A DNA stretch of 64,000 nucleotides, taken from an uncultured Candidatus Saccharibacteria bacterium. Its GTDB lineage: Bacteria > Patescibacteriota > Minisyncoccia > UBA6257 > 2-01-FULL-56-20. Under the pieces are notes generated by a model. The model was not told the DNA's origin, ran no database searches, and saw only the letters and a list, made by a program, of their open reading frames with translations. The stretch is taken from the NCBI GenBank assembly GCA_964484655.1, contig CAZAFA010000002.1:24130-88129 (forward strand), given 5' to 3'. Below, piece after piece: positions 8,641 through 45,012 of this stretch. Position 1 is the first letter of the stretch. Every line of letters begins with the position of its first letter. The translations under genes and the position numbers were made by a program.

Positions 8641-8644
8641 GTTT

Positions 8645-10207: not shown

Positions 10208-10277
10208 CCGTTGACGCCGTCCCCGCTCCCTCCTAGGGTGCGGGGAGTTTCGCATATTGAGAACGGAGAAGGGAAAT

Positions 10278-10943
10278 ATGGAGATACTGAACGTCGGAGG
10301 CGAGGAGATCGCCTTCGCGCACACGGGCGTCGTTCGTCAGACGCTCATCAACCATCCCCTAGCCGAGCCGCGGCAGGGAGAGAAGAAGCGGCGGTACCCG
10401 TCGGAGCGCGTCCCCTTCCTGCGGGCGCGCGTCGGCGGAGGGCTGTTCTTCGGGCAGCACGCGGACCGCCACAGCGGCGGCAAGCGCGTCAGCGGCATCC
10501 GCGAGCTGAAGGCGCACGGCGTCCCGCGGAAGACGACGCTCTTCAACGGGCGCGAGTTCTCGGCGGTCGCCGAGGAGGAGCTCGGAGCCATCGCGGATCA
10601 CCTGGTGGTCCCGGAGATACCGTACGGCGCGCTCGGCGAGAACCTCGTCGTCGCGGGCATAGACCGGTTCACGCAGCTCCCGCCGGGATCGCTGCTGTAC
10701 TTCTGGTCGCCCGCGGGCGAGCTGCGCGAAGCGATGCTCGCCGTCTGGCGCGAGAACGAACCCTGCCACATACCGGGGCAGATTCTCGAGGAGCGGTTCT
10801 TCCCGGATGAGTCCGGGCTGCCCCAGGCGTTCCAGAAGCTGCGCGAACTGGAGGTAGGGTTGCGCGGCATCGTCGGCTTCGTCTTCCGGGACGGCACGAT
10901 CCATCCCGGCGACATCGTCCGCGTGCAGCTGCCGTCACGATAG
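10278..10943 (+). CDS. MOSC-domain protein (putative)
   Basis: GENLVVAGID...LPPGSLL and a conserved Cys (EPCHIPGQ) near the C-terminus, as in YiiM/MOSC proteins. RBS GAGAAGGG lies upstream. Confidence 0.55.
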   Translation: MEILNVGGEEIAFAHTGVVRQTLINHPLAEPRQGEKKRRYPSERVPFLRARVGGGLFFGQHADRHSGGKRVSGIRELKAHGVPRKTTLFNGREFSAVAEEELGAIADHLVVPEIPYGALGENLVVAGIDRFTQLPPGSLLYFWSPAGELREAMLAVWRENEPCHIPGQILEERFFPDESGLPQAFQKLRELEVGLRGIVGFVFRDGTIHPGDIVRVQLPSR

Positions 10944-10944
10944 C

Positions 10945-10972
10945 GAAAGGCGCCCTGCGGGGCGCCTTTCCA
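10945..10972 (+). terminator. rho-independent terminator
   Basis: GAAAGGCGCCC-TGC-GGGGCGCCTTTCC followed by ATTT. Near-identical to the hairpin at 11757. Confidence 0.6.
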
Positions 10973-11036
10973 TTTGCCGAGCGGGACGCTAGGGTGGCCG
11001 CGGATACTATGCCAATTGGATAAGGAGGAGATTCGC

Positions 11037-11744
11037 ATGTTCGATACCCAGACCTTCCCCGGACAACGCTACGGGAAGGCGTTCTTCCCGGTCGTGCACG
11101 TCGCCGACCAGTACCAGGCGGTCCGCGACCTCGAGGTCGCCGCCTGGTCGGACGCCGACGGCGCGTTCCTGATAAGCCACGGCCCGATGCAGGCGGAGGA
11201 GCTCGCCGAGCTCTACGCGCTCTGCAAGGGCGTCGTGCCCGGCGCGTTCCTGCTCGGCGCGAACTTCTACCCGAAGCCGCTCCTGCAGGCGTTCGGCTAC
11301 GCGCCCAAGTGCGGCCTCGACGCCCTCTGGGCGGACGACGGCATGCCGCGGTACGACCCGCCCCGCCCGGCGACCGTCAACGACATCCGCGCGGAGTCGT
11401 CCTTCAGGGGGCTGCTCTTCGGCGGCCTCGCCTTCAAGGGGCAGCGCCAGGTGGACGACTCGCTCATACCGCAGGTCGTCGAGCTCGCGAAGGCGTGCAT
11501 GGATGTGATCGTCACGAGCGGTCCGGAGACCGGCACCGCGCCGGCGCTGCGCAAGATGGCGCTGCTGCGCGAATGCTGCGGGGATTTCCCGCTCGGCATC
11601 GCTTCGGGCATGACGCCGGAGAACATCCGCGACTTCCTGCCGTATGCGGACTGCTTCCTCGTGAACACGGGGATCAGCAGCGACGGCGGGCTTACGCTCG
11701 ACAAGCGGCTGACCCCGCGCATGGCGGAACTGATCCACACGTAG
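11037..11744 (+). CDS. putative TIM-barrel protein, BtpA/SgcQ-like
   Basis: RBS TAAGGAGGAG. Gly-rich segments DVIVTSGPETG...LGIASGMTPENI...FLVNTGI resemble BtpA-family barrels. Weak. Confidence 0.4.
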   Translation: MFDTQTFPGQRYGKAFFPVVHVADQYQAVRDLEVAAWSDADGAFLISHGPMQAEELAELYALCKGVVPGAFLLGANFYPKPLLQAFGYAPKCGLDALWADDGMPRYDPPRPATVNDIRAESSFRGLLFGGLAFKGQRQVDDSLIPQVVELAKACMDVIVTSGPETGTAPALRKMALLRECCGDFPLGIASGMTPENIRDFLPYADCFLVNTGISSDGGLTLDKRLTPRMAELIHT

Positions 11745-11756
11745 CGTGAAACGAAG

Positions 11757-11783
11757 AAAGGCGCCCCTGGGGCGCCTTTCCCT
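11757..11783. terminator. bidirectional terminator hairpin
   Basis: AAAGGCGCCCC-TGG-GGCGCCTTTCCC between convergent genes. Confidence 0.6.
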
Positions 11784-11795
11784 TCCCGCGCGCCG

Positions 11796-14102
11796 CTACT
11801 GCGGCGTGCTCGTCGTCGTGGTCGCGGCCGGAGTCTGCGCGCCGACTCCGCTGAGCGCGGGCCTGCCGGCGGTCACGTTGTCGAGCACCTGCCGGACCTC
11901 GGCGTTGTCCGGATTGTCCTTCGCGAGGCGCTCGAACGTGGCTACCGCCTGGTCGCGCATGCCCAGCTGGCTGTACGTGAGGCCGAGGAAGTAGCGCGCG
12001 TCGGCGAACCCTTCGTTGAGCGAGACGGCACGCTCGAAGTCAGCGCGCGCCTCGGCGTAGAGCTCGTTCTGATACAGGAGGAGCCCGACCTGGAAGGCGA
12101 GCTGCGGGTCCTGCGCGGCGAGCGCGCGAAGCTCCTGGACGCGCCCGAGCGCGCGGTCGCGGTCGCCGGCGGCGAAGTATCCCTGCGCCGAGAGGAACCG
12201 CGCATCGGCGTAGTCCCCCTTCAGCTCGAGCGCGGCGGCTGCCTGCTCCTGGGCCTTGGCGAACGCGTCGCCCGCGGGCTCGCCCTTCTGCGCGCGCGCC
12301 GAGGCGAGCGTCAGGTACGTGCGTGCGCGAGAGAGCGGCCAGAGCGGGCTGACCGGGTCGGCGGCGGACGCGCGGTCGTACGCCTCGATCGCCTTGTCCG
12401 AGGCGCCGTCGAGGTACGGCGTGAGCCCTTCGTAGATGCCGCCCAGGTTGCTCCAGTTGCCGGAGTCGTGGGGGTTGAGGACGGTGGCGCGCTGCGCGGC
12501 GGCGAGAGCCGCCTGGAGCAGGGACTGCAGCTGCTGCTGCGTCTCCTGGTCAGGAGCCGAGGTGGCCGCGGACGCCTTCGCCCGGAAGGAGTTGAGGAGC
12601 GCCTGCGAGAGGGAGCGCTGGTACGCGTCGGAGCGCTCATCCAGGTCCGCTGCGCGCGCGACCATGCGGAGCGCGCGGTCCGCGTCTCCCGCGGCGGCGG
12701 CGCGGCCGCCCAGCGCGAAGTACGAGGCGGCCGCATACCGCTCGCCGACCAGGTACAGGCCCGCGATGCCGCCCGCGGTGACGACGATCAGCGCCAGGAA
12801 GGTCGCGAAGAGCGGCATGGTGGACCGTCCCGAGAAGGAGACCTCCCGGCGGCGCCCCGCGATGCCGACGAGTAGGCCGAGGCCGAGCGCGCCGAGCGTC
12901 AGCTGCACGAACGAGCCGGGGTACACGAGGAGGCCGAGGCCCGCGAGGCCGGCGGCCATGATCGCGTAGGGCGCGGCCGGGTCGTCGAGGCGACGCCATG
13001 CCAGGGAGGCGCCGCCGACGAGCACGACGAGCCATGCGGCGAGCCCGAGGATGCCCGTGGTGACCGGGACGGTAGCGAGGTAGCTCACGCCCTGGTCGAA
13101 GCGCATCTGCCAGAACGGCGAGAGGTTCGACGCCGGCGTGCGATCCTTGGCGAACGCGTACGCGTACGTTCCGGGACCGGTGCCCTGGAGCGCCCGCTTG
13201 CTCGAGAGGACCTCCTTGACCGAGGAGAACGTCAGCGCGGTGCCCGGGCGCAGCTCGAGGCTGCTCACGGCGAAGGACGGGAGTCGCGGGCCGACCAGCA
13301 CGAAGACGAGCGCGATCAGGGAGAGGCCGAGCGGGATGCCGATGCTCGCGCGGCGCACGAAGCCCGATGCCGCGCAGAAGAGCGCGATGAGCGCCACCGC
13401 CACCCAGAGGATGCGGAAGTTCATGAGGATGAGCACGATCAGCGCGAGCGCGCCCGAGCCGAGGAGGAACGCCTGCGCGCGCGACCCGAGCGCCTGCAGC
13501 GGCACGAGGCACGCGATGCCGAGCGCGAGTACGGCCACGAAGCCGAGCTCCGCGATGGTCGCCGGCGCGTAGGTCAGCAGGACGGGCACGCCCATCAGGC
13601 CGATCGCGCCGAGGAGGCTGGCGATGCCCGCGCCCGCGACGAACGCGGTCAGGAGACGCACGAGGTCCGCGCGATCCGTGATAAAGACGGCGGCGAGGAC
13701 GAAGACGATCGCCGCGATCAGCACGTGCAGGAGGGCGTCCGGCGCCAGCAAGCCGCCGAAGAGCGACTGCGCCGGGGTGAGCGAGAACGCCGTCGAGATC
13801 GCGGTCGCGATCACCACCCCGAGCACGCCGGCGGATGCCCACGAGCCCGGATAGCTGAGGCGGCGGCGCTGCACCGTCTCGGCGAGGAGCGCCACGAGTC
13901 CGACGGTGGCGAGCACGGCCGCCAGGAGGACGCGCGCCGCGCCGGCGGGGCTGGCCGTCAGCGGGATGAAGAACCAGGGCAGCGCGAAGGCCAGGACCAG
14001 GAGCGAGCCGCGGCCGATGCGGCGCCAGGCCGAGACGCCTTCGCGGCGGGCGGGAGCGGTTGCTGCGGCGCGCTTGCGCGTCGCGCGTTCGTTGTCAGGC
14101 AT
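11796..14102 (-). CDS. O-antigen ligase (Wzy_C)-like polytopic membrane protein fused to C-terminal TPR repeats
   Basis: About 12 TM helices in the N-terminal 450 aa, then TPR-like repeats (ARYFLGLTYSQLG, AEARADFERAV). The start was moved to the internal ATG at 14102 because the 14192 start would overlap tRNA-Leu. Confidence 0.7.
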   Translation of the reverse strand: MPDNERATRKRAAATAPARREGVSAWRRIGRGSLLVLAFALPWFFIPLTASPAGAARVLLAAVLATVGLVALLAETVQRRRLSYPGSWASAGVLGVVIATAISTAFSLTPAQSLFGGLLAPDALLHVLIAAIVFVLAAVFITDRADLVRLLTAFVAGAGIASLLGAIGLMGVPVLLTYAPATIAELGFVAVLALGIACLVPLQALGSRAQAFLLGSGALALIVLILMNFRILWVAVALIALFCAASGFVRRASIGIPLGLSLIALVFVLVGPRLPSFAVSSLELRPGTALTFSSVKEVLSSKRALQGTGPGTYAYAFAKDRTPASNLSPFWQMRFDQGVSYLATVPVTTGILGLAAWLVVLVGGASLAWRRLDDPAAPYAIMAAGLAGLGLLVYPGSFVQLTLGALGLGLLVGIAGRRREVSFSGRSTMPLFATFLALIVVTAGGIAGLYLVGERYAAASYFALGGRAAAAGDADRALRMVARAADLDERSDAYQRSLSQALLNSFRAKASAATSAPDQETQQQLQSLLQAALAAAQRATVLNPHDSGNWSNLGGIYEGLTPYLDGASDKAIEAYDRASAADPVSPLWPLSRARTYLTLASARAQKGEPAGDAFAKAQEQAAAALELKGDYADARFLSAQGYFAAGDRDRALGRVQELRALAAQDPQLAFQVGLLLYQNELYAEARADFERAVSLNEGFADARYFLGLTYSQLGMRDQAVATFERLAKDNPDNAEVRQVLDNVTAGRPALSGVGAQTPAATTTTSTPQ

Positions 14103-27955: not shown

Positions 27956-28369
27956 ATGAGAAAGAACAGAGGATTCTCCCTGATAGAGCTGCTCATCGTC
28001 GTGGTGATCATCGGCATCATCGCCGCGATAGCCATACCCAACCTGCTCGACGCGCGTCGCGTCGCCAACGAAGGCGCGGCGGTCGCGGAGATGAAGAAGG
28101 TCGCCGACGGATGCGCGAAGGACAAGGCGAAGTGCGCCTATACCTACGAATCGTCCGGCTACATGCTGGCGGTGGCGCCCGCCAACGCGGGCGGGTTCGT
28201 GGTGACGGCGGTGCCGATCCAGCCGAACGGCGTAACCGCGACCGGCAACCGGTCGTTCGCGCTCATGAGCTGGTCGAGCAACGGACGGGACGGCTACGAG
28301 GTCATCTACAAGCCCGGAGGCATGGCGCCGTCGAGCCTGAGCGACCCCGAGGCGCGACGCCTCGAATAG
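27956..28369 (+). CDS. type IV pilin / pseudopilin (prepilin N-methylation motif)
   Basis: MRKNRGFSLIELLIVVVIIGIIAAIAIP N-terminus. Confidence 0.8.
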   Translation: MRKNRGFSLIELLIVVVIIGIIAAIAIPNLLDARRVANEGAAVAEMKKVADGCAKDKAKCAYTYESSGYMLAVAPANAGGFVVTAVPIQPNGVTATGNRSFALMSWSSNGRDGYEVIYKPGGMAPSSLSDPEARRLE

Positions 28370-28392
28370 CCGTACCGGGGCGTGAAAGAAAG

Positions 28393-28420
28393 AAGGCAGG
28401 ACCCGCGGGTCCTGCCTTTT
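28393..28420. terminator. bidirectional terminator hairpin
   Basis: AAGGCAGGACCC-GC-GGGTCCTGCCTTTT. Confidence 0.65.
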
Positions 28421-28438
28421 CCTATGCGCGAGCGTCCG

Positions 28439-28750
28439 CTACTGCGTGGTGCTCGTAATGTTGACCGTGCTCGTGTTCGCCTGGATGGTGGTCGTGGTCA
28501 CGGTGCTGGTGGGGGCAGGGTTCGTGCCGTTGTTCCCCGAGTTGCCGGGAAGGCCGCTGTCCTGCGTCGTGTTCGACGGGACGGCCGTGTTGTCGTAGCT
28601 CGCCGGCCGCGCGAACACCTTGTAGGCGATGAACGCCGCGATGACGACGAGAGCGAGTATGGCGAGGATGGATGCCAGCCCCGCGCCGTCTCCGCCCTCC
28701 GAAGAGCGTACCTGGCGCGTGACGCGCACCTCGCGTTCCGTATCTGCCAT
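28439..28750 (-). CDS. small membrane protein with Thr/Asn-rich tail
   Basis: TM helix LASILAILALVVIAAFIAY followed by a low-complexity T/N/S C-terminus. Confidence 0.4.
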   Translation of the reverse strand: MADTEREVRVTRQVRSSEGGDGAGLASILAILALVVIAAFIAYKVFARPASYDNTAVPSNTTQDSGLPGNSGNNGTNPAPTSTVTTTTIQANTSTVNITSTTQ

Positions 28751-28976
28751 GGGATCAGTTGGAAATGGGTTTGCGACTAGAAGTGTAGATGGATTCGCTG
28801 GAGGCTGCAGCCTACGGACTGCGCGCACAGCTCACCATGTAAGACGTGCGCCGGGAGGCATGCTGACGCATGCAAGAGCGCGGGGCCCGAAGGCCCCGCG
28901 CTTCCCCATAGGTTGTCCCTCCGCTTCCCTCCCCCGATGAGGAAGCTGCTCTGCTTGGTTCCCTGATTGCTGGTCC

Positions 28977-29720
28977 CTAGAAGTCGGCCTTCACGCGGAC
29001 CGTCGCGGCGGTCACCAGGTTATGGAGCGAGTTCCAGAGGCCCTGGATGCGCACCTTGGTGCCGACGACGAGGTTCGAGAAGGTTCCGGCGTCGCCGTCG
29101 CGGTCCGAGATCGTGGTCGATGCGTTGACCGCGACCGTCACGTCGCCCTGATGCTTGGTGCTCACGGTGACGGTGTCGGCCGCGTCATCGACCGCGGTGA
29201 CCGTGCCCTTTACCTGGGCGTAGTCCGCGTCGACGACGAGCACGAAGCTGGCGTCTATGGTCCGGGCAGGACCCTCGTTATCCGTGACGTTGCCCGCTAC
29301 CGCGATGCGGTCCCCCGCCTCGATGGTGCGGTCGCCCCGGTAGGCGAAGGTCGTGTTGCTGTCCGTGTCGATGGTCCAGGTGATGCTCGGATCCTTCTTC
29401 GACGTGGCCGTGATGACGCTGCCGTCGACGGCGGTCACCGTGCCGAGGCCGAAGGTCAGGCCGATGCGGTCATCGAGCTTGCGGTCCTGGCGATCCATGC
29501 GGTCCTCCCGCTTCTGGTCGTCACCGCCCTTCCGGTCATCGCCTTGATGACGCGAGAAGAAGCCCTGGAGCGCGCCCCCGAGGCCGAGGTTCGCGTCCCC
29601 CTGTACGCGAGCGTCTGCCTTCGCCGAGGCGTCGATGCCGAATGCGTGCGCCGCCGAAACCGAGGTTCCCGCGATCGCGAGCGCGATGAATGCGCCGAGT
29701 AGTGCTTTCTGCTTGTTCAT
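28977..29720 (-). CDS. secreted protein with internal repeats
   Basis: Signal peptide MNKQKALLGAFIALAIAGTSVSAAHA. Repeated GTVTAVD...VTV modules. Confidence 0.55.
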   Translation of the reverse strand: MNKQKALLGAFIALAIAGTSVSAAHAFGIDASAKADARVQGDANLGLGGALQGFFSRHQGDDRKGGDDQKREDRMDRQDRKLDDRIGLTFGLGTVTAVDGSVITATSKKDPSITWTIDTDSNTTFAYRGDRTIEAGDRIAVAGNVTDNEGPARTIDASFVLVVDADYAQVKGTVTAVDDAADTVTVSTKHQGDVTVAVNASTTISDRDGDAGTFSNLVVGTKVRIQGLWNSLHNLVTAATVRVKADF

Positions 29721-29787
29721 TGCTGATGAGTGTCTTGGTGAACGACTCGCTATATAAGACGCATCCTCCGCGAGCGCCTTACATCCG

Positions 29788-29816
29788 TTGACTCATCGCG
29801 ACGCATGTCGCATAGT
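29788..29816 (+). promoter_or_regulatory. candidate promoter TTGACT-N17-CATAGT containing inverted repeat GCGAC-GCAT-GTCGC
   Basis: Read in the AT-richer gap upstream of 29862. Confidence 0.35.
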
Positions 29817-29861
29817 GCGGTGCAACTTGATCACTGAATAGAAGGAGGAGGAGTATCGCCT

Positions 29862-30143
29862 ATGTCCGATACCGAAACTGAAACGCAGCCGTTCAACCGG
29901 CGTCATCCCGAGCTCCGCGACGGAGAGCGCTGGCTCGGCAACTATCCGCTCTCCCAGGTCCCTTACCTCCCGCATAGCACCAAGCGCCGCGGGCAGGTCG
30001 CCTACGACCGCGAAGGCACGCCGCTCACCGAGTCCGTCGGGAGCAACATGAGCCGCTTCGTCCCGGTCTTCGTCAGCCTCGACGAGATCGTGAAGAAGCA
30101 ACGTGCGAGGCGCCGTCCCAGCGTCGCAGGAGGCGTGGTATGA
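29862..30143 (+). CDS. small conserved-motif protein, paralog A
   Basis: RBS GAAGGAGGAGGAG. Shares RHPE..ER.GN...P.L......V.YD..G.P...S..PVFV with the next ORF. Confidence 0.45.
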   Translation: MSDTETETQPFNRRHPELRDGERWLGNYPLSQVPYLPHSTKRRGQVAYDREGTPLTESVGSNMSRFVPVFVSLDEIVKKQRARRRPSVAGGVV

Positions 30144-30397
30144 CCATGACCCTGGAGCGTCATCCCGAGGAAGGGGCTGACGAGCGCTGCATCGGCAACT
30201 TCCTGCCGGACGAGCTGCCGCAGCTCGAGCAGAGGTACGGCGCCTTGCGCGTCGGCGAGGTCCCCTACGACCACGATGGCGCGCCGAAGCGGGACTACGG
30301 ATCGCTGCGACCGGTGTTCGTGAACCGGTTCAAGCCGCCGCCGGTCGAGACGCGCGTCGCGACGATCAGGCAGAGGCCCTGGTGGAGCCGGAAATGA
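30140..30397 (+). CDS. small conserved-motif protein, paralog B
   Basis: ATGA overlap with paralog A. Same motif order. Confidence 0.45.
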   Translation: MTMTLERHPEEGADERCIGNFLPDELPQLEQRYGALRVGEVPYDHDGAPKRDYGSLRPVFVNRFKPPPVETRVATIRQRPWWSRK

Positions 30398-30399
30398 GG

Positions 30400-30427
30400 A
30401 AAGCGGGACCTGCGGGTCCCGCTTCTG
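30400..30427 (+). terminator. rho-independent terminator
   Basis: AAAGCGGGACC-TGC-GGGTCCCGCTTCT. One loop base differs from the hairpin at 32857. Confidence 0.6.
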
Positions 30428-30470
30428 CATCTGCAGTGAAATATAAAAAGTAACCGGTACAATATCCTGC

Positions 30471-31058
30471 ATGGATTCCTCCCGCATGCGCTCCCTCGCG
30501 CTCATCGTCCACTGGCTGCCGCTCGCGGCGGCGATCGCGCTCATGGGCGGCATGGCGATCGCCATGGCCCAGCAGGCGCTCCGCGCGCAGCTCAACGACC
30601 CGCAGATACAGATGGTCGCCGACGCGCAGGCGCTCCTCGAGAAGGGCGTCGCGCCCCAGCAGGTCGCGACCCCGACGACGCCCGTCCCGCTGGACGCGGC
30701 GCACAGCTTCGCCCCCTTCCTCGCCGTCTACGACGCCCAGGGAACGCCGCTCGCCTGGAGCGGCACCATCAACGGGCAGGCGCCGAAGCCGCCCACGGAC
30801 GTGTTCGAGCGGGCCAAGGAGGCGGGCCGCAACCGCGTGACCTGGGAACCGGAGGAGAAGGTCCGCATCGCGCTGGTAGCGCGCCCGGTGAACAACGGGG
30901 AGCGCTACGTGGCCGCCGGCCGGAACATGGCCGAGGTGGAGGACCGGATCTGGCTGATGACCCGCATCGGGCTCTCCTCCGTGCTGCTGATCCTCCTGAT
31001 CACGCTCGTCCTCGAGGGCTTCGCGGACTGGTGGCGGCGGAAGGCCGTTGCCGCTTAA
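30471..31058 (+). CDS. hypothetical membrane protein
   Basis: N-terminal and C-terminal TM helices flank a soluble domain. Confidence 0.4.
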   Translation: MDSSRMRSLALIVHWLPLAAAIALMGGMAIAMAQQALRAQLNDPQIQMVADAQALLEKGVAPQQVATPTTPVPLDAAHSFAPFLAVYDAQGTPLAWSGTINGQAPKPPTDVFERAKEAGRNRVTWEPEEKVRIALVARPVNNGERYVAAGRNMAEVEDRIWLMTRIGLSSVLLILLITLVLEGFADWWRRKAVAA

Positions 31059-31073
31059 CGAACGAACGGAAGG

Positions 31074-31095
31074 GCCGCGCGAGTCGCGGCTTTTT
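31074..31095 (+). terminator. rho-independent terminator
   Basis: GCCGCGC-GAGT-CGCGGC followed by TTTTTCG. Confidence 0.6.
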
Positions 31096-31097
31096 CG

Positions 31098-31125
31098 TTG
31101 ACTATTTCTCAGAAACCCTTATAAG
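31098..31125 (+). promoter_or_regulatory. candidate promoter TTGACT-N16-TATAAG
   Basis: Lies in the AT-rich leader ahead of the sigma-factor gene. Confidence 0.3.
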
Positions 31126-31172
31126 TTTGCTTACGCTTCTTGATAAAAACGTAATAAGGAGAACGAAGGCCC

Positions 31173-31943
31173 ATGCTGGACAGTCTGAACGGCGCCTCCG
31201 GCCTGCTGGAGGGAACTGAGACGACGGATCCGCCGAAACACGACTATGCACTCGCGAAACGCGCGGGCATGGGCGACGAATCGGCGTTCACGACGCTCTA
31301 TACGCGATACCGTTCGCGCACGCTGAACGTGGTTTCACGGATCGTGGAGCCCGCGGACAGCGAGGACGTGAACCAGGAGGTATGGATCCAGGTATTCAGG
31401 AAGATCGGCTCCTTCAAGGGAGATTCGGCCTTCACGACCTGGCTGCACCGCCTGTCGGTCAACACGGCGCTCATGCACCTGCGGAAACGCACGGTGAAGC
31501 TTGAGCATGTCACCGACGACGAGGAATTCCCCGTCGTCGTGGTCCCGGGAACGGAACGTCCGTCCCGGATGAGGATCGTGGATAAGATCGCGATCGACGA
31601 GGCCTGGGAGTATCTCCCCGCGGGATACAAGCAGGTCCTCTACTACCATGACGTCCTCGGCTACGAGCACGAGGAGGTGGCGGTCATCATGGGATGCTCG
31701 GTAGGGACCTCTAAGTCCCAGCTGCACAAGGCACGCCTCAAGATGGGACGGATACTGCGCCGGAAGAAGCTGAACGCGCACGATTCGAACAACGTCATCG
31801 AGGCCCGATGGAACGCCAGGCTCGGCATAGAGCTGCCGGCGATCAGCATCGGGGAATGGAGGCGCGGCATCGAGGATGCGGCGGAGGAAGAGGCTGAGAC
31901 GGTCGAGGACGACTTCGACATAGGGGAGGAATGGAGCTTATGA
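31173..31943 (+). CDS. sigma-70/ECF-type sigma factor with acidic C-terminal extension
   Basis: Region 2 (DVNQEVWIQVFRKIGSF...FTTWLHRLSVNTA) and region 4 (YHDVLGYEHEEVAVIMGCSVGTSKSQLHKARLKM), plus ~60 extra residues. Confidence 0.75.
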   Translation: MLDSLNGASGLLEGTETTDPPKHDYALAKRAGMGDESAFTTLYTRYRSRTLNVVSRIVEPADSEDVNQEVWIQVFRKIGSFKGDSAFTTWLHRLSVNTALMHLRKRTVKLEHVTDDEEFPVVVVPGTERPSRMRIVDKIAIDEAWEYLPAGYKQVLYYHDVLGYEHEEVAVIMGCSVGTSKSQLHKARLKMGRILRRKKLNAHDSNNVIEARWNARLGIELPAISIGEWRRGIEDAAEEEAETVEDDFDIGEEWSL

Positions 31944-32857
31944 GAGATGCTCTCGAAAAAACGGGAACGTCGCTCCCGGTCGCGACGAACGGCACGCAGC
32001 AGGAGGAGAAGGTCATCTGGGTCAGGCGCGACCGCCTGGCTCCCGACCCCCGCCAGCCGCGCAACTGGTTCGACGAAGCCAAGCTCGAGGAACTCGCCAA
32101 GAGCATCGGAGCCGTCGGACAGCGGGTGGCCATCATCGTGGTCGCCCACCCCGAGGAGCCTGATCGCTACCTCATTGTCGACGGCGAACGCCGCTGGCGC
32201 GCCTGCGAGATCGCGGGCGTCATGATGATGAAGGCGGTCGTCTCCCAGGAGACGGACGAGCGCGAGCTCTTCAAGCAGTCCGCGATCGCGAACTTCTCGC
32301 GGGAGGGTCACACCACCCTCGAGATCATGCACGCGATCGCCCGCATCAAGCAGGACTTCCCGGATCTCAAGAATCACGAGATCGCGGCGATGTTCGGCAA
32401 GTCCCTCGGCTGGGTGCAGAACCACCTTGCGCTGCTGCGGCTCCCGCGGGAGGTCCAGGACCTGATGCATCCCTCGCGACCGAAGGAACAGCGGCTGGTG
32501 TTTTCCGTTGCCCTGCAGCTCGTCCCGCTCTCCGAGCAGGATCAGCTGCGATTCGCCCGCGAGTACTGCTCCGGCAGGAGGAGCGCGAAAAGCACCGCGG
32601 TGGACATCACGCGCCACCGGCTGACCAGCGGCGGCGTCACGGTGAAGAAGCCGAAGAAGTCGCATGCGCGGCAGAAGATCACCAACTTCACCAAGCGCAT
32701 CCAGGAGGACACGGAGCTCATCGCCCTGATGGATCCGGAGACCTTCCAAGTCGCCTTCGCGGGACGGAACAGGCAGGAGGTCAAGGAAGCCCTCCGCAAC
32801 CTCGAGGATGCGGAGCGGAACATCGCCAAGATCAAACGCTTGCTCGGGAAGTCATAA
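31931..32857 (+). CDS. ParB/Srx-like N-terminal domain protein with HTH (orphan ParB-like)
   Basis: LIVDGERRWRACEIAG is a ParB box II-like motif. Overlaps the sigma gene by 13 nt. Confidence 0.75.
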   Translation: MELMRDALEKTGTSLPVATNGTQQEEKVIWVRRDRLAPDPRQPRNWFDEAKLEELAKSIGAVGQRVAIIVVAHPEEPDRYLIVDGERRWRACEIAGVMMMKAVVSQETDERELFKQSAIANFSREGHTTLEIMHAIARIKQDFPDLKNHEIAAMFGKSLGWVQNHLALLRLPREVQDLMHPSRPKEQRLVFSVALQLVPLSEQDQLRFAREYCSGRRSAKSTAVDITRHRLTSGGVTVKKPKKSHARQKITNFTKRIQEDTELIALMDPETFQVAFAGRNRQEVKEALRNLEDAERNIAKIKRLLGKS

Positions 32858-32884
32858 AAAGCGGGACCTTCGGGTCCCGCTTTT
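32857..32884. terminator. terminator hairpin
   Basis: AAAAGCGGGACC-TTC-GGGTCCCGCTTTT. Confidence 0.7.
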
Positions 32885-32939
32885 GCATGCCAGTCGCTAG
32901 CTGCTCCGCTTCCCGTGCCTTCGCTTGAGACGTAGCTGG

Positions 32940-35285
32940 AGATGGCATGAGATTTCCTACTTTAACCCTTACAACTCCCTAATCAAACTAATCAAGTCCT
33001 AATACAGCTCTAAACCATCTAATTGCACCAATGCCATGATGATTAATAATTTCTAGCGTTGTGGAATCGGCAACGCGGTTATGGACACGATTATTTCTGT
33101 ATTCAATAAGTTCCACAAAACTCTTTTCAAGCCTGGGCTTATGCCTAAATTTTGGCTTGAACGCATCCCAATTCTGAGCTTTTAAGATAATGTCTTTGTA
33201 GTGGTTGAGGGACAAAAAGCGAACTAAGGCTTCCCCTTGCTGAAACTCTTCCTGAGTTTTAAATGGATACCTTTCCAATTCAGAATCCACCATACCGGCA
33301 ACTTGCTCCTTGATATACTGAGGAATCACTCCGTCACGATTCCAGTAATTAGCACCATACTTTGTCAGCAGCTCAGTATGAATGAGGTCCCTAAGTGCGC
33401 TTTCGATTTCTTCAATGGACTGAATGCCGATCTCTTCAACTTCATTCGAATCCTCTTCTCCCGTTTCATCATTAGAAAGAATCTCTGGATTAAAATCAGG
33501 CTTTACCTTATTGATCTCTAGACAAAGCATTGCAGCAACCTTTACATAACCAGCTTCACTCGATGCACTTTTCATCTCTTTAAGTTGTTCATCATCAAGG
33601 CTAGTCAGATGCGCAGTAAGAGGCTTTGTATATTCGGTAAGCTTAAGTCGATAAATTTTCAAATCCTGCACGATGTTTCGATCACTCCGACGAAAATCTA
33701 AAAGTATATGTTTGAAAACTAATAAGAGGACCGCTATACCGAAATTAGAACGTACGAAGCCTTTTTCGCCATTATTCCAATCCTTTAAACATTCATCCTT
33801 AATTGCTTGGAAAAATATATCCAGCCTCTCAACTGCGAAATCAACGGTATCTTCTTCTGTCTCATGGAAAAGCTCGCCAGGCCTCCTTCCGGCTTTTAGA
33901 AAATTTCCCTTCTTTAAACGATTGCAAAGAGTATAAAGACTGATATTTGACTGCGTGTCTTTCTCATTAACACTCGGAACATAAATATGATTTTCCAATG
34001 CGCCATTCCTCTTTGCGTTGAGCCCTTTACCGACACGGCTGATTAAGCAAAGAAGCCGATTTTTATCTTCTTTAGAGCCATAGTAGATATCGCTATACAA
34101 ATCCCATAGCAAATTTGCATCGACCTTCTTCTGGTGCTCATTGATATCGATGAATAACTTACCCTGACGATCTGCAGGAAGTCCCTCGTAGGCAAAAACA
34201 GGAATCAATGCAGTCGTTCCCTCTGGGATGCCTGCATAACTCAATAAGCGATGCTGACCATCAATAATCCACGCAGCTTTATAAGAACGAGGGAAAGTAA
34301 GATCGCCATATTCAATTCCTTCAAGAGTAGAAATTACTTTAAAACGAGGCGGCTTACTGAAATTGACGATAACATTATTAGCAAAGCTGCCTCTATGATT
34401 TTGAATATATTCCCTGATATCGGCGACACGTCCTTTATTCACCATCCTTTGATATGGATTTTCAGAACCATTTAGTAGATTGCCCTGATTGAGCTTTCTA
34501 TGATGAACATAACTGATCTTAATCAGATCCTTCGGATAGCAAACAAATGAATAGCCTGTTAGTCCATTTGGGTCAGTTACTCTTATAGCGGGGACATGTG
34601 GAGGATAATCTGGCACCTCCTCATCAAAGAAAGTCTCAGCGCAAACTTGATAAAAAGCATCTTTCCCAAGGCGGCCGAATAAATCTTCAAAGTATGAAAT
34701 ATAAAACGAGTTCCAAATAGAAACTCTCTTTTCAGAAGCTAAAACTAAATCAGACTCTGAAGGGTCAATGTTATTGAGAGCCAAGATGTATTTAACCGAT
34801 GTACTCTCTCCAAAAAGTTTCTGGAAAACAGGAGTTAGTTTTCGCGAATAATCATTAATTTCCCGGATATCCTGAGCAACTGTTCTCCGGGATCGCTCCT
34901 CAGCATGCTTACATTCGATGACAAATATAGTCTTCCCAAAGCGGGCAATTACATCGATTTGCTTACTCTCGCCATTGTTATCAAGCAAGACCCTAGATGC
35001 TTGACTATCCCGATTTAAGTTGTGGGCACCGAGACTCCACATCAAATTCCAAATCCTATCCTCAAAAACTTCTGACGCGGCTTTATCGGAGTTTTTAATT
35101 TTTCTCCTTTCTATTTCTGTATTAAAAAAAGGATCGGACTCATCAACACGTAATAAAATATTTTGAATCCGCTCGAGTGGAGTTTCCGAAACCGAATCCT
35201 TCTTGGGCATAGAAATATTGGATCACGTAAACACCTATCTAACAAGACGGCGAAATATCAATCCTTACCCAGAATTGGGCGTTTG
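32940..35285. other. low-GC (~37%) genomic island abutting tRNA-Ser(GCT)
   Basis: Abrupt compositional shift from ~70% GC with AT-rich codon usage. Carries a single gene. No integrase or direct repeat found. Confidence 0.55.
32988..35210 (-). CDS. multidomain defence-like protein: PD-(D/E)xK-like N-terminus, DGQHR domain (DndB/ParB-Srx-like), HEPN-like C-terminus
   Basis: Motifs read directly: IDVIARFGKTIFVIECKH (D...ExK), WIIDGQHRLLSYAG (DGQHR), ELIEYRNNRVHNRV (Rx4H HEPN-like). 740 aa. Confidence 0.8.
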   Translation of the reverse strand: MPKKDSVSETPLERIQNILLRVDESDPFFNTEIERRKIKNSDKAASEVFEDRIWNLMWSLGAHNLNRDSQASRVLLDNNGESKQIDVIARFGKTIFVIECKHAEERSRRTVAQDIREINDYSRKLTPVFQKLFGESTSVKYILALNNIDPSESDLVLASEKRVSIWNSFYISYFEDLFGRLGKDAFYQVCAETFFDEEVPDYPPHVPAIRVTDPNGLTGYSFVCYPKDLIKISYVHHRKLNQGNLLNGSENPYQRMVNKGRVADIREYIQNHRGSFANNVIVNFSKPPRFKVISTLEGIEYGDLTFPRSYKAAWIIDGQHRLLSYAGIPEGTTALIPVFAYEGLPADRQGKLFIDINEHQKKVDANLLWDLYSDIYYGSKEDKNRLLCLISRVGKGLNAKRNGALENHIYVPSVNEKDTQSNISLYTLCNRLKKGNFLKAGRRPGELFHETEEDTVDFAVERLDIFFQAIKDECLKDWNNGEKGFVRSNFGIAVLLLVFKHILLDFRRSDRNIVQDLKIYRLKLTEYTKPLTAHLTSLDDEQLKEMKSASSEAGYVKVAAMLCLEINKVKPDFNPEILSNDETGEEDSNEVEEIGIQSIEEIESALRDLIHTELLTKYGANYWNRDGVIPQYIKEQVAGMVDSELERYPFKTQEEFQQGEALVRFLSLNHYKDIILKAQNWDAFKPKFRHKPRLEKSFVELIEYRNNRVHNRVADSTTLEIINHHGIGAIRWFRAVLGLD

Positions 35286-35372
35286 CGGAGAGGCAGGGAT
35301 TCGAACCCTGGGAGGGGTTCCCCCCTCAACATCTTAGCAGGATGCTCCATTCGACCGCTCTGGCACCTCTCC
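35286..35372 (-). tRNA. tRNA-Ser (anticodon GCT)
   Basis: Reverse complement GGAGAGG...GCATC-CTGCTAA-GATGT..., long variable arm GAGGGGGGAACCCCTCCC, T arm CAGGG-TTCGAAT-CCCTG. Confidence 0.8.
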
Positions 35373-35448
35373 CGTTTTGCAGGGCAACAGTAGCGGTTCC
35401 CGACTAGGATTTCCAGGTCCGTTCCTAGGGAGACGGTGCTATGATTAC

Positions 35449-36024
35449 CCCATGAACACCACCCCCTTCTGGAAGCGCCCCTGGGTCATCGGCCTCGCCG
35501 TCCTGATCCTCATCGCCATCTGGCTCGTCAGCGCGTACAACGGCTTCGTCGCCAAGTCCGCGGCCGTAGAGGCCCAGTGGGCCCAGGTCGAGACCCAGTA
35601 TCAGCGCCGCTTCGACCTCATCCCGAACCTCGTGAGCTCCGTCCAGGGCATCATGGAGCAGGAGCAGGACGTCTTTAAGAGCCTCGCGGACGCCCGCACC
35701 CGGTACTCGGGCGCCGGCACCGTGGACGAGAAGGCGCAGGCCGCCACCCAGGTGGACAGCGCGCTCGCCCGCCTGCTCGTCGTGGTGGAGAACTACCCGC
35801 AGCTCCGCTCCTCCGAGTCCGTGCAGCAGCTCATGGACCAGCTCGAGGGCACCGAAAACCGGATCAGCGTGGAGCGCAACCGCTTCAACGAGAACGTCCA
35901 GGCATACAACGTCGCCGTCACGCGTTTCCCGGGCAACATCAGCTCGCGCATCTTCGGCTTCGCCCCGCACGCGTACTACCGCGCCGCCGAGGGCGCGGAC
36001 GTCGTGCCGCAGGTAGAGCTCTAA
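35449..36024 (+). CDS. LemA-family protein
   Basis: N-terminal TM, then YNGFVAKSAAVEAQWAQVETQYQRRFDLIPNLV, the LemA signature. Confidence 0.8.
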   Translation, partial: PMNTTPFWKRPWVIGLAVLILIAIWLVSAYNGFVAKSAAVEAQWAQVETQYQRRFDLIPNLVSSVQGIMEQEQDVFKSLADARTRYSGAGTVDEKAQAATQVDSALARLLVVVENYPQLRSSESVQQLMDQLEGTENRISVERNRFNENVQAYNVAVTRFPGNISSRIFGFAPHAYYRAAEGADVVPQVEL

Positions 36025-36075
36025 GCTCCCCTGCACGGCAGAAGGACCCGCATGCGCGGGTCCTTCTTCGTTCGT

Positions 36076-36357
36076 TCAAGCCTCCTTTTTCTTGGATTCT
36101 TCCCAGGCCGCGTAGCGGTCCGGGTGGCAGGTCGGGCAGATGCATTTGCCGAACCAGCAACGCTGGTGCTGGCCGTCCGCGCAGTAGCCGCAGGGAGCGG
36201 GTTCGCGCTCGGGACGGGCGCGCAGGCGGGATTGCTCCACGGACTCCTTGAGCGAGATGTCGCTCAGAAAACGCTGGGAGCGCACCGAGACCGGCGCGAC
36301 GGTCACGACATGCGAGCCGCGAGGGCTGAGGTCGCCGATGTTCTTCGAGATAGCCAT
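36076..36357 (-). CDS. small Cys-rich (zinc-ribbon-like) protein
   Basis: CGYC...C...C...CICPTC cysteine pattern. Confidence 0.4.
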   Translation of the reverse strand: MAISKNIGDLSPRGSHVVTVAPVSVRSQRFLSDISLKESVEQSRLRARPEREPAPCGYCADGQHQRCWFGKCICPTCHPDRYAAWEESKKKEA

Positions 36358-36480
36358 ACAAGGGGTTCTCCTTCAGGGGTATAGGTTTGTACAAACAGCG
36401 TACGCAAAGCTCATTCTCCTCCGAATCGGGGAAGCGTCAAGGGCGTATCCCGGAGCGCCGCGCGGCGATACACTGATGCC

Positions 36481-37374
36481 ATGAACCGGCGCGCCGCCCT
36501 CGGCATCCTCGCGGGAGTCCTGCTCGCCGTGCCGGCCCACGCCGCGATCCTCGGCCTCCCGGACCGACCGGCGGGCTTCGTCACGGACCAGGCGGGACTC
36601 CTTACGGACGAGCAGCGCGCCTCGCTCGAGAGCACGCTCCGCTCCTTCAACGCGAGCACGAGCATCGAGATCGCCGTCGTCACGGTCCCCTCGCTCCAGG
36701 GCGGCGACATAGACGACTCCGCCGTGAAGCTCTTCGAGCAGTGGGCCATCGGGCAGAGCGAGACGGACCAGGGCGTCCTCTTCCTCGTCGCCAAGGAGGA
36801 CCGCGCGGCCCGCATCGAGGTCGGGTACGGCCTCGAGGGCGCGCTCACGGACGCGCAGGCCGGGCAGGTCCTCCGCCAGGACGTCTTCCCCGCCTTCCGC
36901 GAGGAACGATACGGGGACGGCATCCTGGCCGGCGTGGAGCGCATCATGCGCGTCACCCAGGGCGAGACACTCCCCGTCGAGGAGCAGGAGGCTGCGGATG
37001 CCGGCGGATGGCTCCCCTACGTCCTCTTCGGCGCGTTCTTCCTCTTCCAGGCTCTCGTGGCCGTCATGCGAAGCTCCAAGTCCTGGTGGCTCGGCGGCGT
37101 CCTCGGCGGCGTCGCGGGCCTAGCCGTGACGGCGTTGCACCTGTTCGGCATCGGCACCGTCGCCGGCCTTATCCTCACCGGCATCCTCGCGCTCGCAGGC
37201 CTTGTCCTGGACTTCGTGGTCTCCAAGTTCCCGATCCGGCCGGGAGGCGGGCACGGCGGGCCGTGGATCGGCCCCATGGGCGGCTTCGGAGGAGGAGGAG
37301 GAGGAGGCAGCGGAGGCTTCGGCGGGTTCGGCGGCGGGAGCAGCGGAGGCGGAGGCGCGAGCGGCCGCTGGTAG
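36481..37374 (+). CDS. TPM-domain (YgcG-like) protein with Gly-rich tail
   Basis: Signal/TM then FVTDQAGLLTDEQRASLESTLRSFNASTSIEIAVVTV. TM helices and a GGFGGGGGGGSGGFGGFGGG tail. Confidence 0.75.
   Translation: MNRRAALGILAGVLLAVPAHAAILGLPDRPAGFVTDQAGLLTDEQRASLESTLRSFNASTSIEIAVVTVPSLQGGDIDDSAVKLFEQWAIGQSETDQGVLFLVAKEDRAARIEVGYGLEGALTDAQAGQVLRQDVFPAFREERYGDGILAGVERIMRVTQGETLPVEEQEAADAGGWLPYVLFGAFFLFQALVAVMRSSKSWWLGGVLGGVAGLAVTALHLFGIGTVAGLILTGILALAGLVLDFVVSKFPIRPGGGHGGPWIGPMGGFGGGGGGGSGGFGGFGGGSSGGGGASGRW
37261..37374 (+). repeat. low-complexity GGN-rich coding repeat (Gly-rich tail of TPM protein)
   Basis: GGAGGAGGAGGAGGAGGC and GGCGG repeats read directly. Confidence 0.6.
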
Positions 37375-37450
37375 CGGGACCGGGACGGCGGTACGATTGG
37401 CCTTAGATTCGGAAAACCGAATATCCCTGGAATGCGGAGGAAAGGAACCA

Positions 37451-38233
37451 ATGTTCAAGATGGACGACGTGGACGTCTATTCGGAACGGGGCGTGGAAGC
37501 GCTCATGGACCGCATAGACGCGCACCTGGAGAAGCTCGATCCCAAGAAGAGGAACCCGTACAAGTTCCTGATGAAGGCGCTCCGCGGCCGCTGCTCCGAG
37601 CCCGAGGTCGGCGTCTTCCTCGAGCTCTTCGGCATAGACCGCATCGCGTACTGGCAGGACCTCACGCCTGAGGAATTCTGCGAGACGGTGCCGCAGCTGA
37701 TGCCCGAGGACCTGGAGCTCGTGAAGAGGGCGCCGGAGCATCTGGCGAGCTGCCGCAAATGCCTCGCCGAGTCGTACCGCTACGCGCGCTTCATCGGCGA
37801 GCACCTGGTCATCGTGCACACGATGGCCGCGGACGGCCTGCAGGCGTACCTGGACGCGGGACCGCTCTCGGCTGAGGAGACCATGCGCTTCCATGCCGAG
37901 CTGACGGCGGTGGCGTACACGTACCTGGTCTCGGTGGACCGCATGCGGCAGCGCGAGGACATGCTCGCGGCGCTGCGGGCGATCCCCTGCACGAAGCCGA
38001 GCCTGGCGAAGCGCTTCGAGGCGCGCGGCATCATCAACACGTGCGAACGCCTGCTGATGAGCGATCACGCCCTGGCGCGGGAATCCCGCAGGCGGCATCT
38101 GCCGGAGGAGAAGCGGTACGCGCGCCTCAGCGCGATGTCCGCCCACCTGAAGGAGTGCGGGCGCTGCGCGGCGCAGTACGAGTACGAGAAGCGCGAGGAG
38201 CGATACCAGCAGAAGGTGTACGGACTGCTGTAA
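37451..38233 (+). CDS. hypothetical protein
   Basis: ATG preceded by GGAGGAAAGGAACCA. The track ORF start at 37202 overlaps the TPM gene in another frame. Confidence 0.5.
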   Translation: MFKMDDVDVYSERGVEALMDRIDAHLEKLDPKKRNPYKFLMKALRGRCSEPEVGVFLELFGIDRIAYWQDLTPEEFCETVPQLMPEDLELVKRAPEHLASCRKCLAESYRYARFIGEHLVIVHTMAADGLQAYLDAGPLSAEETMRFHAELTAVAYTYLVSVDRMRQREDMLAALRAIPCTKPSLAKRFEARGIINTCERLLMSDHALARESRRRHLPEEKRYARLSAMSAHLKECGRCAAQYEYEKREERYQQKVYGLL

Positions 38234-38237
38234 AGAG

Positions 38238-38264
38238 GAAGCCCGCCGAGATGGCGGGCTTTCC
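38238..38264. terminator. terminator hairpin
   Basis: GAAGCCCGCC-GAGATG-GCGGGCTTTC. Confidence 0.5.
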
Positions 38265-38295
38265 GTATGAAAACAGGACAGGAAAAGGGTCCCGG

Positions 38296-38601
38296 CTAGG
38301 CGTACGCGGCACGCGCGTGCGAGTTGCTCAGGCACGCCTGGGCGAACGGCAGATACGCAGGTGTCTTCTGCGCGGTCTCCTCGATCGCGGAGGCGAGAAT
38401 GGCAAGCCGGTGCTCCGGCTCGATGGACTGCAGCTCGAACTGATTCACGGCGTTGACCACGTCGGTGACGAATTCAATGCGGTGCTTCTGTTCGGCGATC
38501 TTCTCGCTCAGATGCAGGACTAGGGGGCGGAGCATGGCTCCTTTGGCTATGGCGCCGCCTTGCAGGCGGACGACCAGGTCGTTATTGAGCGGGTTGCTCA
38601 T
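38296..38601 (-). CDS. hypothetical protein
   Basis: 101-aa ORF with a good coding-frame GC3 bias. Confidence 0.4.
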   Translation of the reverse strand: MSNPLNNDLVVRLQGGAIAKGAMLRPLVLHLSEKIAEQKHRIEFVTDVVNAVNQFELQSIEPEHRLAILASAIEETAQKTPAYLPFAQACLSNSHARAAYA

Positions 38602-38682
38602 GGGCTTATTCTCCTTTCAAGGGGTTTAGGGGAGCTGGGAGCCACGGTACCCCTCAGGGACGGAGCCGTCAACCGCGACCGG

Positions 38683-39449
<767 letters not shown>

Positions 39450-42969: not shown

Positions 42970-45012
<2,043 letters not shown>

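Follow-up and report, generated by a model that had tools for sequence, protein, structure and literature searches.

In the 64,000-nucleotide stretch of contig CAZAFA010000002.1 that we analyzed (the window), a single low-GC gene next to tRNA-Ser(GCT) encodes a 740-amino-acid (aa) protein with a predicted PD-(D/E)xK nuclease domain, a DndB-like DGQHR module, and a predicted HEPN domain. With moderate confidence, we read the family to which this protein belongs as the restriction, or effector, half of exchangeable modification-restriction modules, and the window copy as a solo, intact member that was recently acquired in a defense hotspot. The gene and the domains assigned to its product are as follows.

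32988 to 35210, minus strand: open reading frame (ORF) of 740 aa for the three-domain protein, the only long ORF in the low-GC segment
34611 to 35093, minus strand: predicted PD-(D/E)xK restriction-endonuclease-fold domain, aa ~40 to 200, with putative catalytic E50, D86, E99, and K101 and an invariant C100
33471 to 34598, minus strand: DGQHR/DndB-like ParB/Srx-fold module with a helical extension, aa ~205 to 580, with invariant Q254-R255, D317-G-Q-H-R321, and F353-x3-N357
32991 to 33428, minus strand: predicted C-terminal HEPN domain of the Swt1/Abi2(AbiF) type, aa ~595 to 740, with R705-N-N-R-V-H710 (Rx4H) and N680-W681

The initial annotation, a model's reading of the sequence, had placed a D...ExK pattern, a DGQHR motif, and an Rx4H motif in this protein, and each was found where it had been put: KQIDV...ECK at aa 83 to 101, DGQHR at aa 317 to 321, and RNNRVH at aa 705 to 710. 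Conservation was counted in an alignment (A1) of 41 full-length homologs, whose identity to the window protein ranges from 27 to 44%. All 41 sequences have the features that define the DGQHR family (PMC4619093), namely, the DGQHR pentapeptide, the QR pair, and the FxxxN motif. The N-terminal pattern E50/D51...K83-x-x-D86...E99-C100-K101 was near-invariant, with E50 kept in 40 of the 41 sequences, D86 and E99 in 38 each, and K101 in 35 (plus 3 with arginine). At the C terminus, R705 and H710 were found in all 41 homologs, N680 was invariant, and N706 was found in 30. We prefer the 740-aa start to the 684-aa call of the NCBI record (P0001) because 90% or more of the homologs conserve K43, E50, D51, and W54, which lie upstream of that record's start at M57. 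The shorter call drops window positions 35043 to 35210 (codons 1 to 56); the Logan gene call also uses the 740-aa start.

Profile searches place the central module clearly, since the window protein scored 121.5 bits with TIGR03187 (DGQHR; cutoff, 58.85) and 46.2 bits with PF14072 (DndB; cutoff, 29.1), the latter also matched by 36 of the 41 homologs. For the PD-(D/E)xK and HEPN domains, the assignments combine family-level profiles, motifs, and predicted structure. The window protein scored below threshold with NERD (19.4 bits versus 22.1) and Hjc (17.5 versus 21.1), and these models matched 4 and 3 of the 41 homologs, respectively, with Card1_endonuc matching 1. HEPN_Swt1 (PF18731) matched 23 of the 41 homologs, with a best E value of 6.8e-8, and did not match the window protein. 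The predicted fold (AF2 model, pLDDT of 86.9) fits the alpha-beta-beta-beta-alpha-beta core of PD-(D/E)xK enzymes and the all-alpha HEPN fold, and the best structural match of the C-terminal domain was PbAbiF. Neither the protein nor the 41-sequence profile gave a meaningful match in sequence searches of the PDB, and Foldseek against the PDB gave no match at an E value of ≤0.001. Viral predicted structures (BFVD) matched the middle part alone, as GmrSD_N, DndB, or AIPR-like proteins. In PADLOC-DB v2.0, there were partial matches to DpdB (65 bits), DndB, the candidate system PDC-M34B (9.6e-10 over aa 599 to 722), and CARF_PDDEXK, none of them full length. The profile and PADLOC searches that the initial annotation had proposed thus returned matches to domains and to no full-length component. 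Judging from these profiles and from the residues conserved in the 41 homologs, the protein is a predicted PD-(D/E)xK, DGQHR, and HEPN fusion, as had been suggested, with its putative catalytic signatures intact.

The protein belongs to a large family that has no name. A word-index search found 361 relatives among the 8,000 candidates scored, most of them ~750 aa long with ~94% query coverage, and 1,036 clusters at 50% identity (E value of ≤1e-30) emerged when 1.84 billion representatives were searched exhaustively by profile. The top 150 of these were nearly all ~750 aa and aligned almost end to end. Members came from Roizmanbacteria, Bacteroidota, alphaproteobacterial plasmids, and gut metagenomes, and their source annotations read only "DGQHR domain-containing protein" or "DndB." The N terminus varies, with AlbA_2 in several members and EVE in P0005. 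In the literature that could be searched, no characterized member (PDC-M34, DGQHR plus HEPN, DndB-like, ParB-HEPN) was found. Surveys from 2013 already list fusions of ParB-like (DGQHR/COG1479) modules to HNH, PD-(D/E)xK, and HEPN nucleases (PMC3632139, PMC3710099), among them a Swt1-like HEPN domain fused to ParB (Saro_3948) in the survey of Anantharaman et al. (PMC3710099). The homolog on plasmid pNL1 is SARO_RS17535, which may correspond to Saro_3948.

Most of the sampled members of this family have a modification-type gene as a neighbor. We called ORFs in 80 loci from metagenomes, 5 around close homologs, and 2 on plasmids, clustered the neighbors, and collapsed near-identical copies. The 73 nonredundant loci (designated L; P denotes proteins) were classified as listed here; the loci of P0002 and P0004 were added later and stand outside the 73.

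33 of 73 loci: D12/Dam-family N6-adenine methyltransferase adjacent on the same strand, usually with an overlap of a few bases
10 of 73 loci: B12-binding/radical-SAM protein directly downstream
6 of 73 loci: radical-SAM protein and GHKL ATPase, with a small DndB-like DGQHR protein in 5 of the 6
5 of 73 loci: solo, with flanks of 1.5 kb or more on both sides
19 of 73 loci: class undecidable because the contig is too short

A modification-type partner was therefore present in 49 of the 54 informative loci (33 Dam-family and 16 radical-SAM), and the partners were on the same strand as the homolog, abutting or overlapping it. The methyltransferase cluster matched PF02086 in 32 of 32 members, and its representative scored 212 bits with TIGR00571 (Dam). 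All 16 members of the radical-SAM cluster matched Radical_SAM, 9 of them also matched B12-binding, and the ATPase cluster matched HATPase_c_3 in 5 of 5 members. The initial annotation had proposed a single-protein defense system. That description holds for the window copy, which is a solo, or orphan, member of a mostly partnered family; it has no dnd, ssp, or dpd genes beside it, and the lack of Dnd/Ssp partners had been noted. It does not hold for the family, because 49 of the 54 informative loci have an adjacent modification gene; a close homolog, P0002, is itself divergent to Vsr and a C5-methyltransferase.

The four-gene radical-SAM set, which consists of the restriction endonuclease (REase)-DGQHR-HEPN protein, a B12-binding/radical-SAM protein, a GHKL ATPase, and a small DGQHR protein, was also found on two plasmids, pNL1 of Novosphingobium aromaticivorans and one from Agrobacterium.

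L001 (pNL1), 8161 to 12301: four-gene set
L002 (Agrobacterium plasmid), 8368 to 12591: four-gene set
L123, 12233 to 16400: four-gene set

This set may be an undescribed DNA modification-restriction system. It recurs in L130, L147, L167, and L169, with L147 lacking the small DGQHR protein within three genes. The radical-SAM proteins of the set are ~525 to 545 aa long, contain CX3CX2C, and match no NCBIfam model.

In a rough neighbor-joining tree, partner type tracks clades yet has switched several times. The window protein branches basally in a clade whose other members are the proteins of L007, P0002, L003, L005, and P0004, with neighborhoods as follows.

L007: Dam-family methyltransferase
P0002: C5-methyltransferase and Vsr
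L003: solo, EVE-fused
L005: solo
P0004: solo, among housekeeping genes

Four of the six clade members are thus solo, in loci that extend at least 8 kb on each side. These neighborhoods bear on the explanation that the window protein is a conventional type II-like restriction subunit that cuts unmodified foreign DNA, its cognate methyltransferase being encoded elsewhere in the genome. Most relatives do have an adjacent methyltransferase, the 64-kb window covers only part of its contig (at least 219 kb), and the putative catalytic residues are intact. However, the island is a single ~2.3-kb gene that could not bring its own methyltransferase to the site, the window holds no recognizable methyltransferase, and the closest clade is mostly solo. 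We regard this explanation as unlikely. The frequency of GATC in host DNA (observed/expected ratio of 0.98, neither avoided nor enriched) has no bearing on the methyltransferase question.

Two loci of this clade contained further genes near the homolog. In L007 (P0003, 5952 to 7625), the Dam-family methyltransferase lies downstream of the homolog, while the upstream side holds a radical-SAM protein of another type (Zn_ribbon_HMPTM plus Radical_SAM); several PIN/VapB toxin-antitoxin pairs lie near P0003. In L005 (5566 to 7478), the solo P0006 adjoins Hypoth_Ymh, a HEPN-related family, and an Imm5-like gene, an arrangement suggestive of a small cluster of conflict genes.

From this architecture and these neighborhoods, we infer the enzymatic activities, the sensing role, and the defense phenotype of the family. 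In the proposed mechanism, the ParB-like DGQHR module would bind a nucleoside triphosphate (NTP) and DNA and read the modification status of that DNA. The modification signal would license dimerization-dependent DNA cleavage by the PD-(D/E)xK domain, and the HEPN domain, its active site formed on dimerization, would serve as a second, RNA-directed effector with an abortive or backup function. HEPN RNases need a dimer to build the active site. The partner would be a Dam-family N6-methyladenine (m6A) methyltransferase, a C5-methyltransferase with Vsr, or a B12/radical-SAM protein, in some loci accompanied by a GHKL ATPase and a small DndB-like protein. Published precedents are as follows: in GmrSD-type proteins such as GmrSD and BrxU, the ParB-like part is described as sensing DNA modification and controlling the nuclease (PMC4619093); a ParB/DUF262 module is described as the modification sensor of SspE and GmrSD and proposed as such for NsnA (PMC12065111); a DndB-like protein binds ATP and GTP (PMC12704722); and an RNA-directed effector role has been argued for HEPN fusions in restriction-modification systems (PMC3710099).

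The solo window copy most likely works in a modification-dependent (type IV-like) or abortive infection (Abi)-like manner or with a methyltransferase encoded elsewhere. Among these modes, the modification-dependent or Abi-like one is favored because the clade is rich in solo copies, one of which carries an EVE modified-base reader. A more far-reaching proposal is that the REase-DGQHR-HEPN proteins of ~750 aa are a new class of NTP-gated, dual DNA- and RNA-cleaving restriction effectors that can be plugged onto any DNA-marking module (m6A, 5-methylcytosine, or a new B12/radical-SAM-dependent mark whose synthesis would involve the GHKL ATPase and the small DndB-like protein), with solo copies being modification dependent or abortive; we offer this tentatively, as possible and short of probable.

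Several points weigh against our reading of the family and of the window copy. An unprotected restriction nuclease is expected to be toxic and counterselected, and the solo copy could therefore be silent or differently regulated. A promoter scan of the island gave 0 sites. None of the partner genes (Dam, C5-methyltransferase, Vsr, radical-SAM, GHKL) and no methyltransferase motifs were recognizable in the 64-kb window, where the one real-looking ORF with a [DNS]PP[YFW] pattern (10672 to 11376) had no Pfam match. The window protein itself is under the Pfam thresholds for the NERD, Hjc, and HEPN models. The adjacency of the family to modification genes is a correlation, and the metagenome loci behind it were drawn by two peptide patterns, many of them on short contigs. 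Finally, DndB has been described as a regulator and not as an effector (PMC10853773).

Next, we examined the insertion site, for which the features are as follows (a dot in place of a strand means that none applies).

32950 to 35284, dot: low-GC foreign segment of ~2.3 kb with one gene, from GC profiles; right end exact, left end approximate
32857 to 32884, dot: perfect 12-bp hairpin AAAAGCGGGACC-ttcg-GGTCCCGCTTTT with an A-tract and a T-tract, read from the sequence
35285 to 35372, minus strand: tRNA-Ser(GCT), 50.6 bits with the Rfam tRNA model, its 3' end being the island boundary
35211 to 35284, minus strand: 74-nucleotide spacer from the tRNA 3' end to the start codon, without a promoter-like site or strong terminator

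In 300-nucleotide windows, the segment from ~32900 to 35300 had a GC content of 0.37 to 0.43, versus 0.61 to 0.74 in both flanks, and the 1-kb bins from 33001 to 35000 (0.39 to 0.41) were the sole bins below 0.55 across the 64 kb. The low-GC, single-gene stretch at tRNA-Ser described in the initial annotation is therefore real: the one 740-aa ORF has a GC content of 0.399, versus 0.672 in the remainder of the window, and a third-position GC content (GC3) of 0.363, versus 0.82 to 0.96 in four neighboring genes. This unameliorated composition points to recent acquisition. Of the two boundaries that had been called exact, the right one is so, at 35284/35285 and thus at the tRNA 3' end, whereas the left one is softer, because positions 32885 to 32950 are still GC rich and low-GC DNA begins near 32950 rather than at 32885. 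The hairpin at 32857 to 32884, located between a convergent ParB-like gene and the 740-aa gene, is likely a bidirectional terminator; it was absent from the output of a consensus terminator scan, probably because its T-run is absorbed into the stem.

The junctions were reproduced base for base in contigs of two other assemblies and sequencing runs (contig L090 is identical to window positions 27997 to 39327, and contig L091 is identical to positions 27997 to 35314), so they are not an assembly artifact. There was no integrase ORF in the island, no direct repeat of the tRNA 3' end of at least 11 nucleotides at the distal boundary, and no inverted repeats around the island beyond chance, and an Rfam scan of positions 32500 to 35600 for an AbiF-type or other noncoding RNA (ncRNA) found only the tRNA. 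The lack of an integrase and an att repeat had been noted before and agrees with these searches. Compared with an integrase-mediated tRNA island, the 3'-end location and the absence from relatives are present, and the integrase and the direct repeat are absent. The classic tRNA-targeted insertion that had been proposed thus stands as foreign DNA at a tRNA 3' end that relatives lack, but its integrase and att sites were not seen, and both flanks of the tRNA vary among relatives.

In run SRR11845634, contig L009 starts at 35285 and contig L091 ends at 35314 (a k-1 overlap), so the assembly graph branches inside the last 30 nucleotides of the tRNA. This branch could reflect alternative junctions in the population or tRNA k-mers shared with related organisms.

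The site also bears on whether the gene is a nonfunctional or silenced remnant, in which case a restriction gene would have arrived without its partner and would be tolerated for lack of expression or because it is decaying. Such a remnant would fit the lack of a partner gene and of a promoter-like site or obvious ribosome-binding site upstream, and orphaned restriction genes without protection are generally expected to be counterselected. However, the 740-codon ORF is intact and keeps all invariant and near-invariant residues of the three domains, its sequence is identical in the assemblies of two sequencing runs, and its unameliorated composition leaves little time for decay, of which none was observed. 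The gene also lies directly downstream of the tRNA on the same strand, so transcription by read-through from the tRNA would be possible. We consider a remnant improbable.

To place the acquisition among relatives of the host, we used GyrB. The window GyrB (42970 to 45012, minus strand) is 66 to 69% identical to proteins labeled Liptonbacteria, Paceibacterota, Minisyncoccia, or Patescibacteria, and further GyrB relatives are 82 to 88% identical, in loci with a GC content of 57 to 65%. A LemA comparison agreed with this placement. The host is therefore a bacterium of the Patescibacteria (candidate phyla radiation) with ~67% GC, which is unusually high for the group. When GTDB species genomes were scanned with LemA to find an empty site, the best relatives had only 61% identity and no usable synteny past LemA-TPM, and the empty-site comparison was made through the GyrB relatives of 82 to 85% identity (loci L174 to L180). 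In these relatives, the gene order GyrB...TPM-LemA-tRNA-Ser(gct) is kept, and the 740-aa gene is missing from L174 to L180, which retain LemA-tRNA-Ser. The tRNA of L176 is 100% identical to that of the window, nucleotide homology ends at its 3' end, and a different gene, with a GC content of 0.51, follows it. In L177, as in L176, homology to the window stops at 35284/35285. The comparison with relatives lacking the insertion, which had been suggested earlier, thus shows that homology stops at the tRNA 3' end and that the gene is not ancestral.

Other cargo was found at the same tRNA, as listed here for tRNA-Ser(gct).

L178, 20024 to 20920 and 21208 to 22026: low-GC cassettes
L179, 11345 to 12385 and 12901 to 13293: low-GC cassettes
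L176, 21105 to 22025: low-GC cassette
L174, 19173 to 19781 and 20004 to 21539: low-GC cassettes

L178/L180 and L179 represent the same species, with identical GyrB and shared DNA that is 97 to 98.6% identical, and they differ by low-GC cassettes at both flanks of the tRNA. In one strain, the gap from LemA to the tRNA contains a nuclease with Mrr_N plus Mrr_cat (113 and 90 bits), and the tRNA is followed by an N6_N4 DNA methyltransferase (164 bits); at both of these positions, the ORFs of the other strain are unrelated and have no Pfam match. Because relatives lack the 740-aa gene and carry other cargo at the same tRNA, the gene was not inherited from their ancestor, and the flanks of tRNA-Ser(GCT) are a strain-variable hotspot for low-GC, single-gene cargo, defense genes included. 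A high-GC lineage of Patescibacteria therefore maintains a strain-variable, single-gene defense hotspot on both sides of one tRNA gene.

Mobility appears to be a property of the family as well. In 5 of 8 other genomes (L007, L172, L173, L115, and L092), the homolog was 10 to 25 GC points below its own flanks, which indicates habitual horizontal transfer, apparently from low-GC donors. We considered whether the gene is a selfish or anti-plasmid gene, or a stabilizer of mobile elements, and not an anti-phage one. Homologs are found on conjugative and other large plasmids, they are repeatedly lower in GC than their flanks, and plasmids can be targets of HEPN proteins (Ishtar, bioRxiv 10.64898/2026.07.06.735840). 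On the other hand, only 12 of 72,556 plasmid records matched, and in 5 of them the match spanned most of the protein; mobile-element genes are absent around the window copy; and no phage genome gave a match by tblastn. An anti-plasmid role also overlaps our modification-restriction reading, being the same enzyme with a different target, and as a separate explanation it is very improbable.

Compared with known systems, the family protein would work most like GmrSD, BrxU, and SspE, would be laid out like NsnA, and is a member only at the superfamily level (DGQHR, PD-(D/E)xK, HEPN) as judged by its domains. Like GmrSD, BrxU, and SspE, it joins a ParB/Srx-fold NTPase module (DGQ(Q/H)R, QR, FxxxN, and a helical extension) and nuclease domains in one polypeptide; those proteins often occur solo or as accessories in defense islands, and the BFVD matches included GmrSD_N proteins. 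Unlike them, it would have an N-terminal PD-(D/E)xK and a C-terminal HEPN domain in place of a C-terminal DUF1524/HNH domain (no HNH or DUF1524 match in the window protein). Its module is of the DndB/TIGR03187 type and not DUF262, because PF03235 was absent from the window protein and matched 1 of the 41 homologs (E value of 0.0017), and SspE was reached by Foldseek at an E value of only 1.1. Unlike type IV enzymes, most relatives are paired with a modification enzyme. The two-gene, same-strand, overlapping pair of a Dam-family methyltransferase and a PD-(D/E)xK protein in 33 of 73 loci resembles DpnII-type restriction-modification systems, but here the predicted nuclease is ~750 aa long with a putative NTP-binding ParB-like module and RNase domain, and the window copy has no methyltransferase.

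Menshen NsnA has a variable N-terminal domain that is sometimes REase-fold, a ParB/DUF262 module, and a helical domain shared with DndB, GmrSD, and SspE (PMC12065111). The layout of an N-terminal domain, a ParB-type module, and a helical domain is the same in our family. However, E50, D86, E99, and K101 are conserved here, whereas the REase domains of NsnA lack the catalytic motif; NsnB and NsnC partners are missing, and PADLOC gave no Menshen match at an E value of ≤1; and the HEPN domain is not in NsnA. That domain resembles Swt1/Abi2/AbiD/AbiF HEPN domains in its Rx4H motif, in the PF18731 matches of 23 of the 41 homologs, and in its best structural match, PbAbiF, and the window locus differs from AbiF in having no AbiF-type ncRNA (Rfam). 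HEPN fusions to REase and ParB DNases of restriction-modification systems were noted in 2013 (PMC3710099).

DndB and DpdB belong to the same domain family (TIGR03187, 121.5 bits), and the window protein has partial matches to their models and shares with them a common association with modification genes. This raises the alternative that it is a DndB/DpdB-like regulator, or an NTP-dependent DNA-binding factor that assists modification, and not an effector. DndB has been described as an ATP-modulated repressor and DpdB as an ATPase that helps base insertion (PMC10853773, PMC12839542), the central module is DndB/DpdB-like, and relatives are adjacent to modification genes. However, the window protein scored far under the equivalog cutoffs of DndB (TIGR03233, 17.2 bits versus 328), DpdB (NF041060, 62.8 versus 300), and TIGR04172 (67 versus 450). 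It is twice the length, with two extra predicted nuclease domains whose invariant catalytic residues would be hard to explain in a pure regulator. There are no dnd, ssp, or dpd genes here, the family's partners are Dam, C5-methyltransferase, or radical-SAM proteins, and the radical-SAM loci already have a separate small DndB-like protein. Of the explanations that we considered, a regulator is the least probable. Given only domain-level PADLOC matches, scores below the DndB, DpdB, and TIGR04172 cutoffs, and no characterizing paper in the literature searched, the initial view that the protein cannot be assigned to a named system is upheld.

ParB-HEPN and ParB-REase fusions were already cataloged in 2013 (PMC3710099, PMC3632139); the literature that we examined describes neither the triple REase-DGQHR-HEPN architecture nor its pairing with Dam and radical-SAM partners. 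If our reading is correct, GmrSD, BrxU, SspE, and NsnA would be joined, as ParB-NTPase-controlled nucleases, by a widespread effector type with at least ~1,000 clusters at 50% identity, and this type would be among the rare restriction proteins that combine a DNase with an RNase. The alternative partners would then let one ask how one effector scaffold reads different DNA marks. The lead of most interest at the family level is this coupling of one scaffold to Dam, Dcm, or an uncharacterized radical-SAM module. The radical-SAM, GHKL, and small DGQHR partner set may make an unknown DNA modification. A new effector class, if true, would bring both a new restriction architecture and a pointer to new DNA modification chemistry.

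On the far side of the hairpin, an ECF-type sigma-70 gene (31173 to 31943, plus strand) overlaps a ParB/Noc-like gene (31931 to 32857, plus strand; ParB_N, 56.8 bits; TIGR00180, 115 bits) by 13 nucleotides. We considered this pair as part of the element that carries the 740-aa gene and ruled it out by its composition, its convergent orientation, and the intervening terminator. The pair was not beside the tRNA in the relatives L174 to L180. With a GC content of 0.60 to 0.63, slightly below that of the host, and a GC3 of 0.82 to 0.88, it may be an older insertion into the same hotspot.

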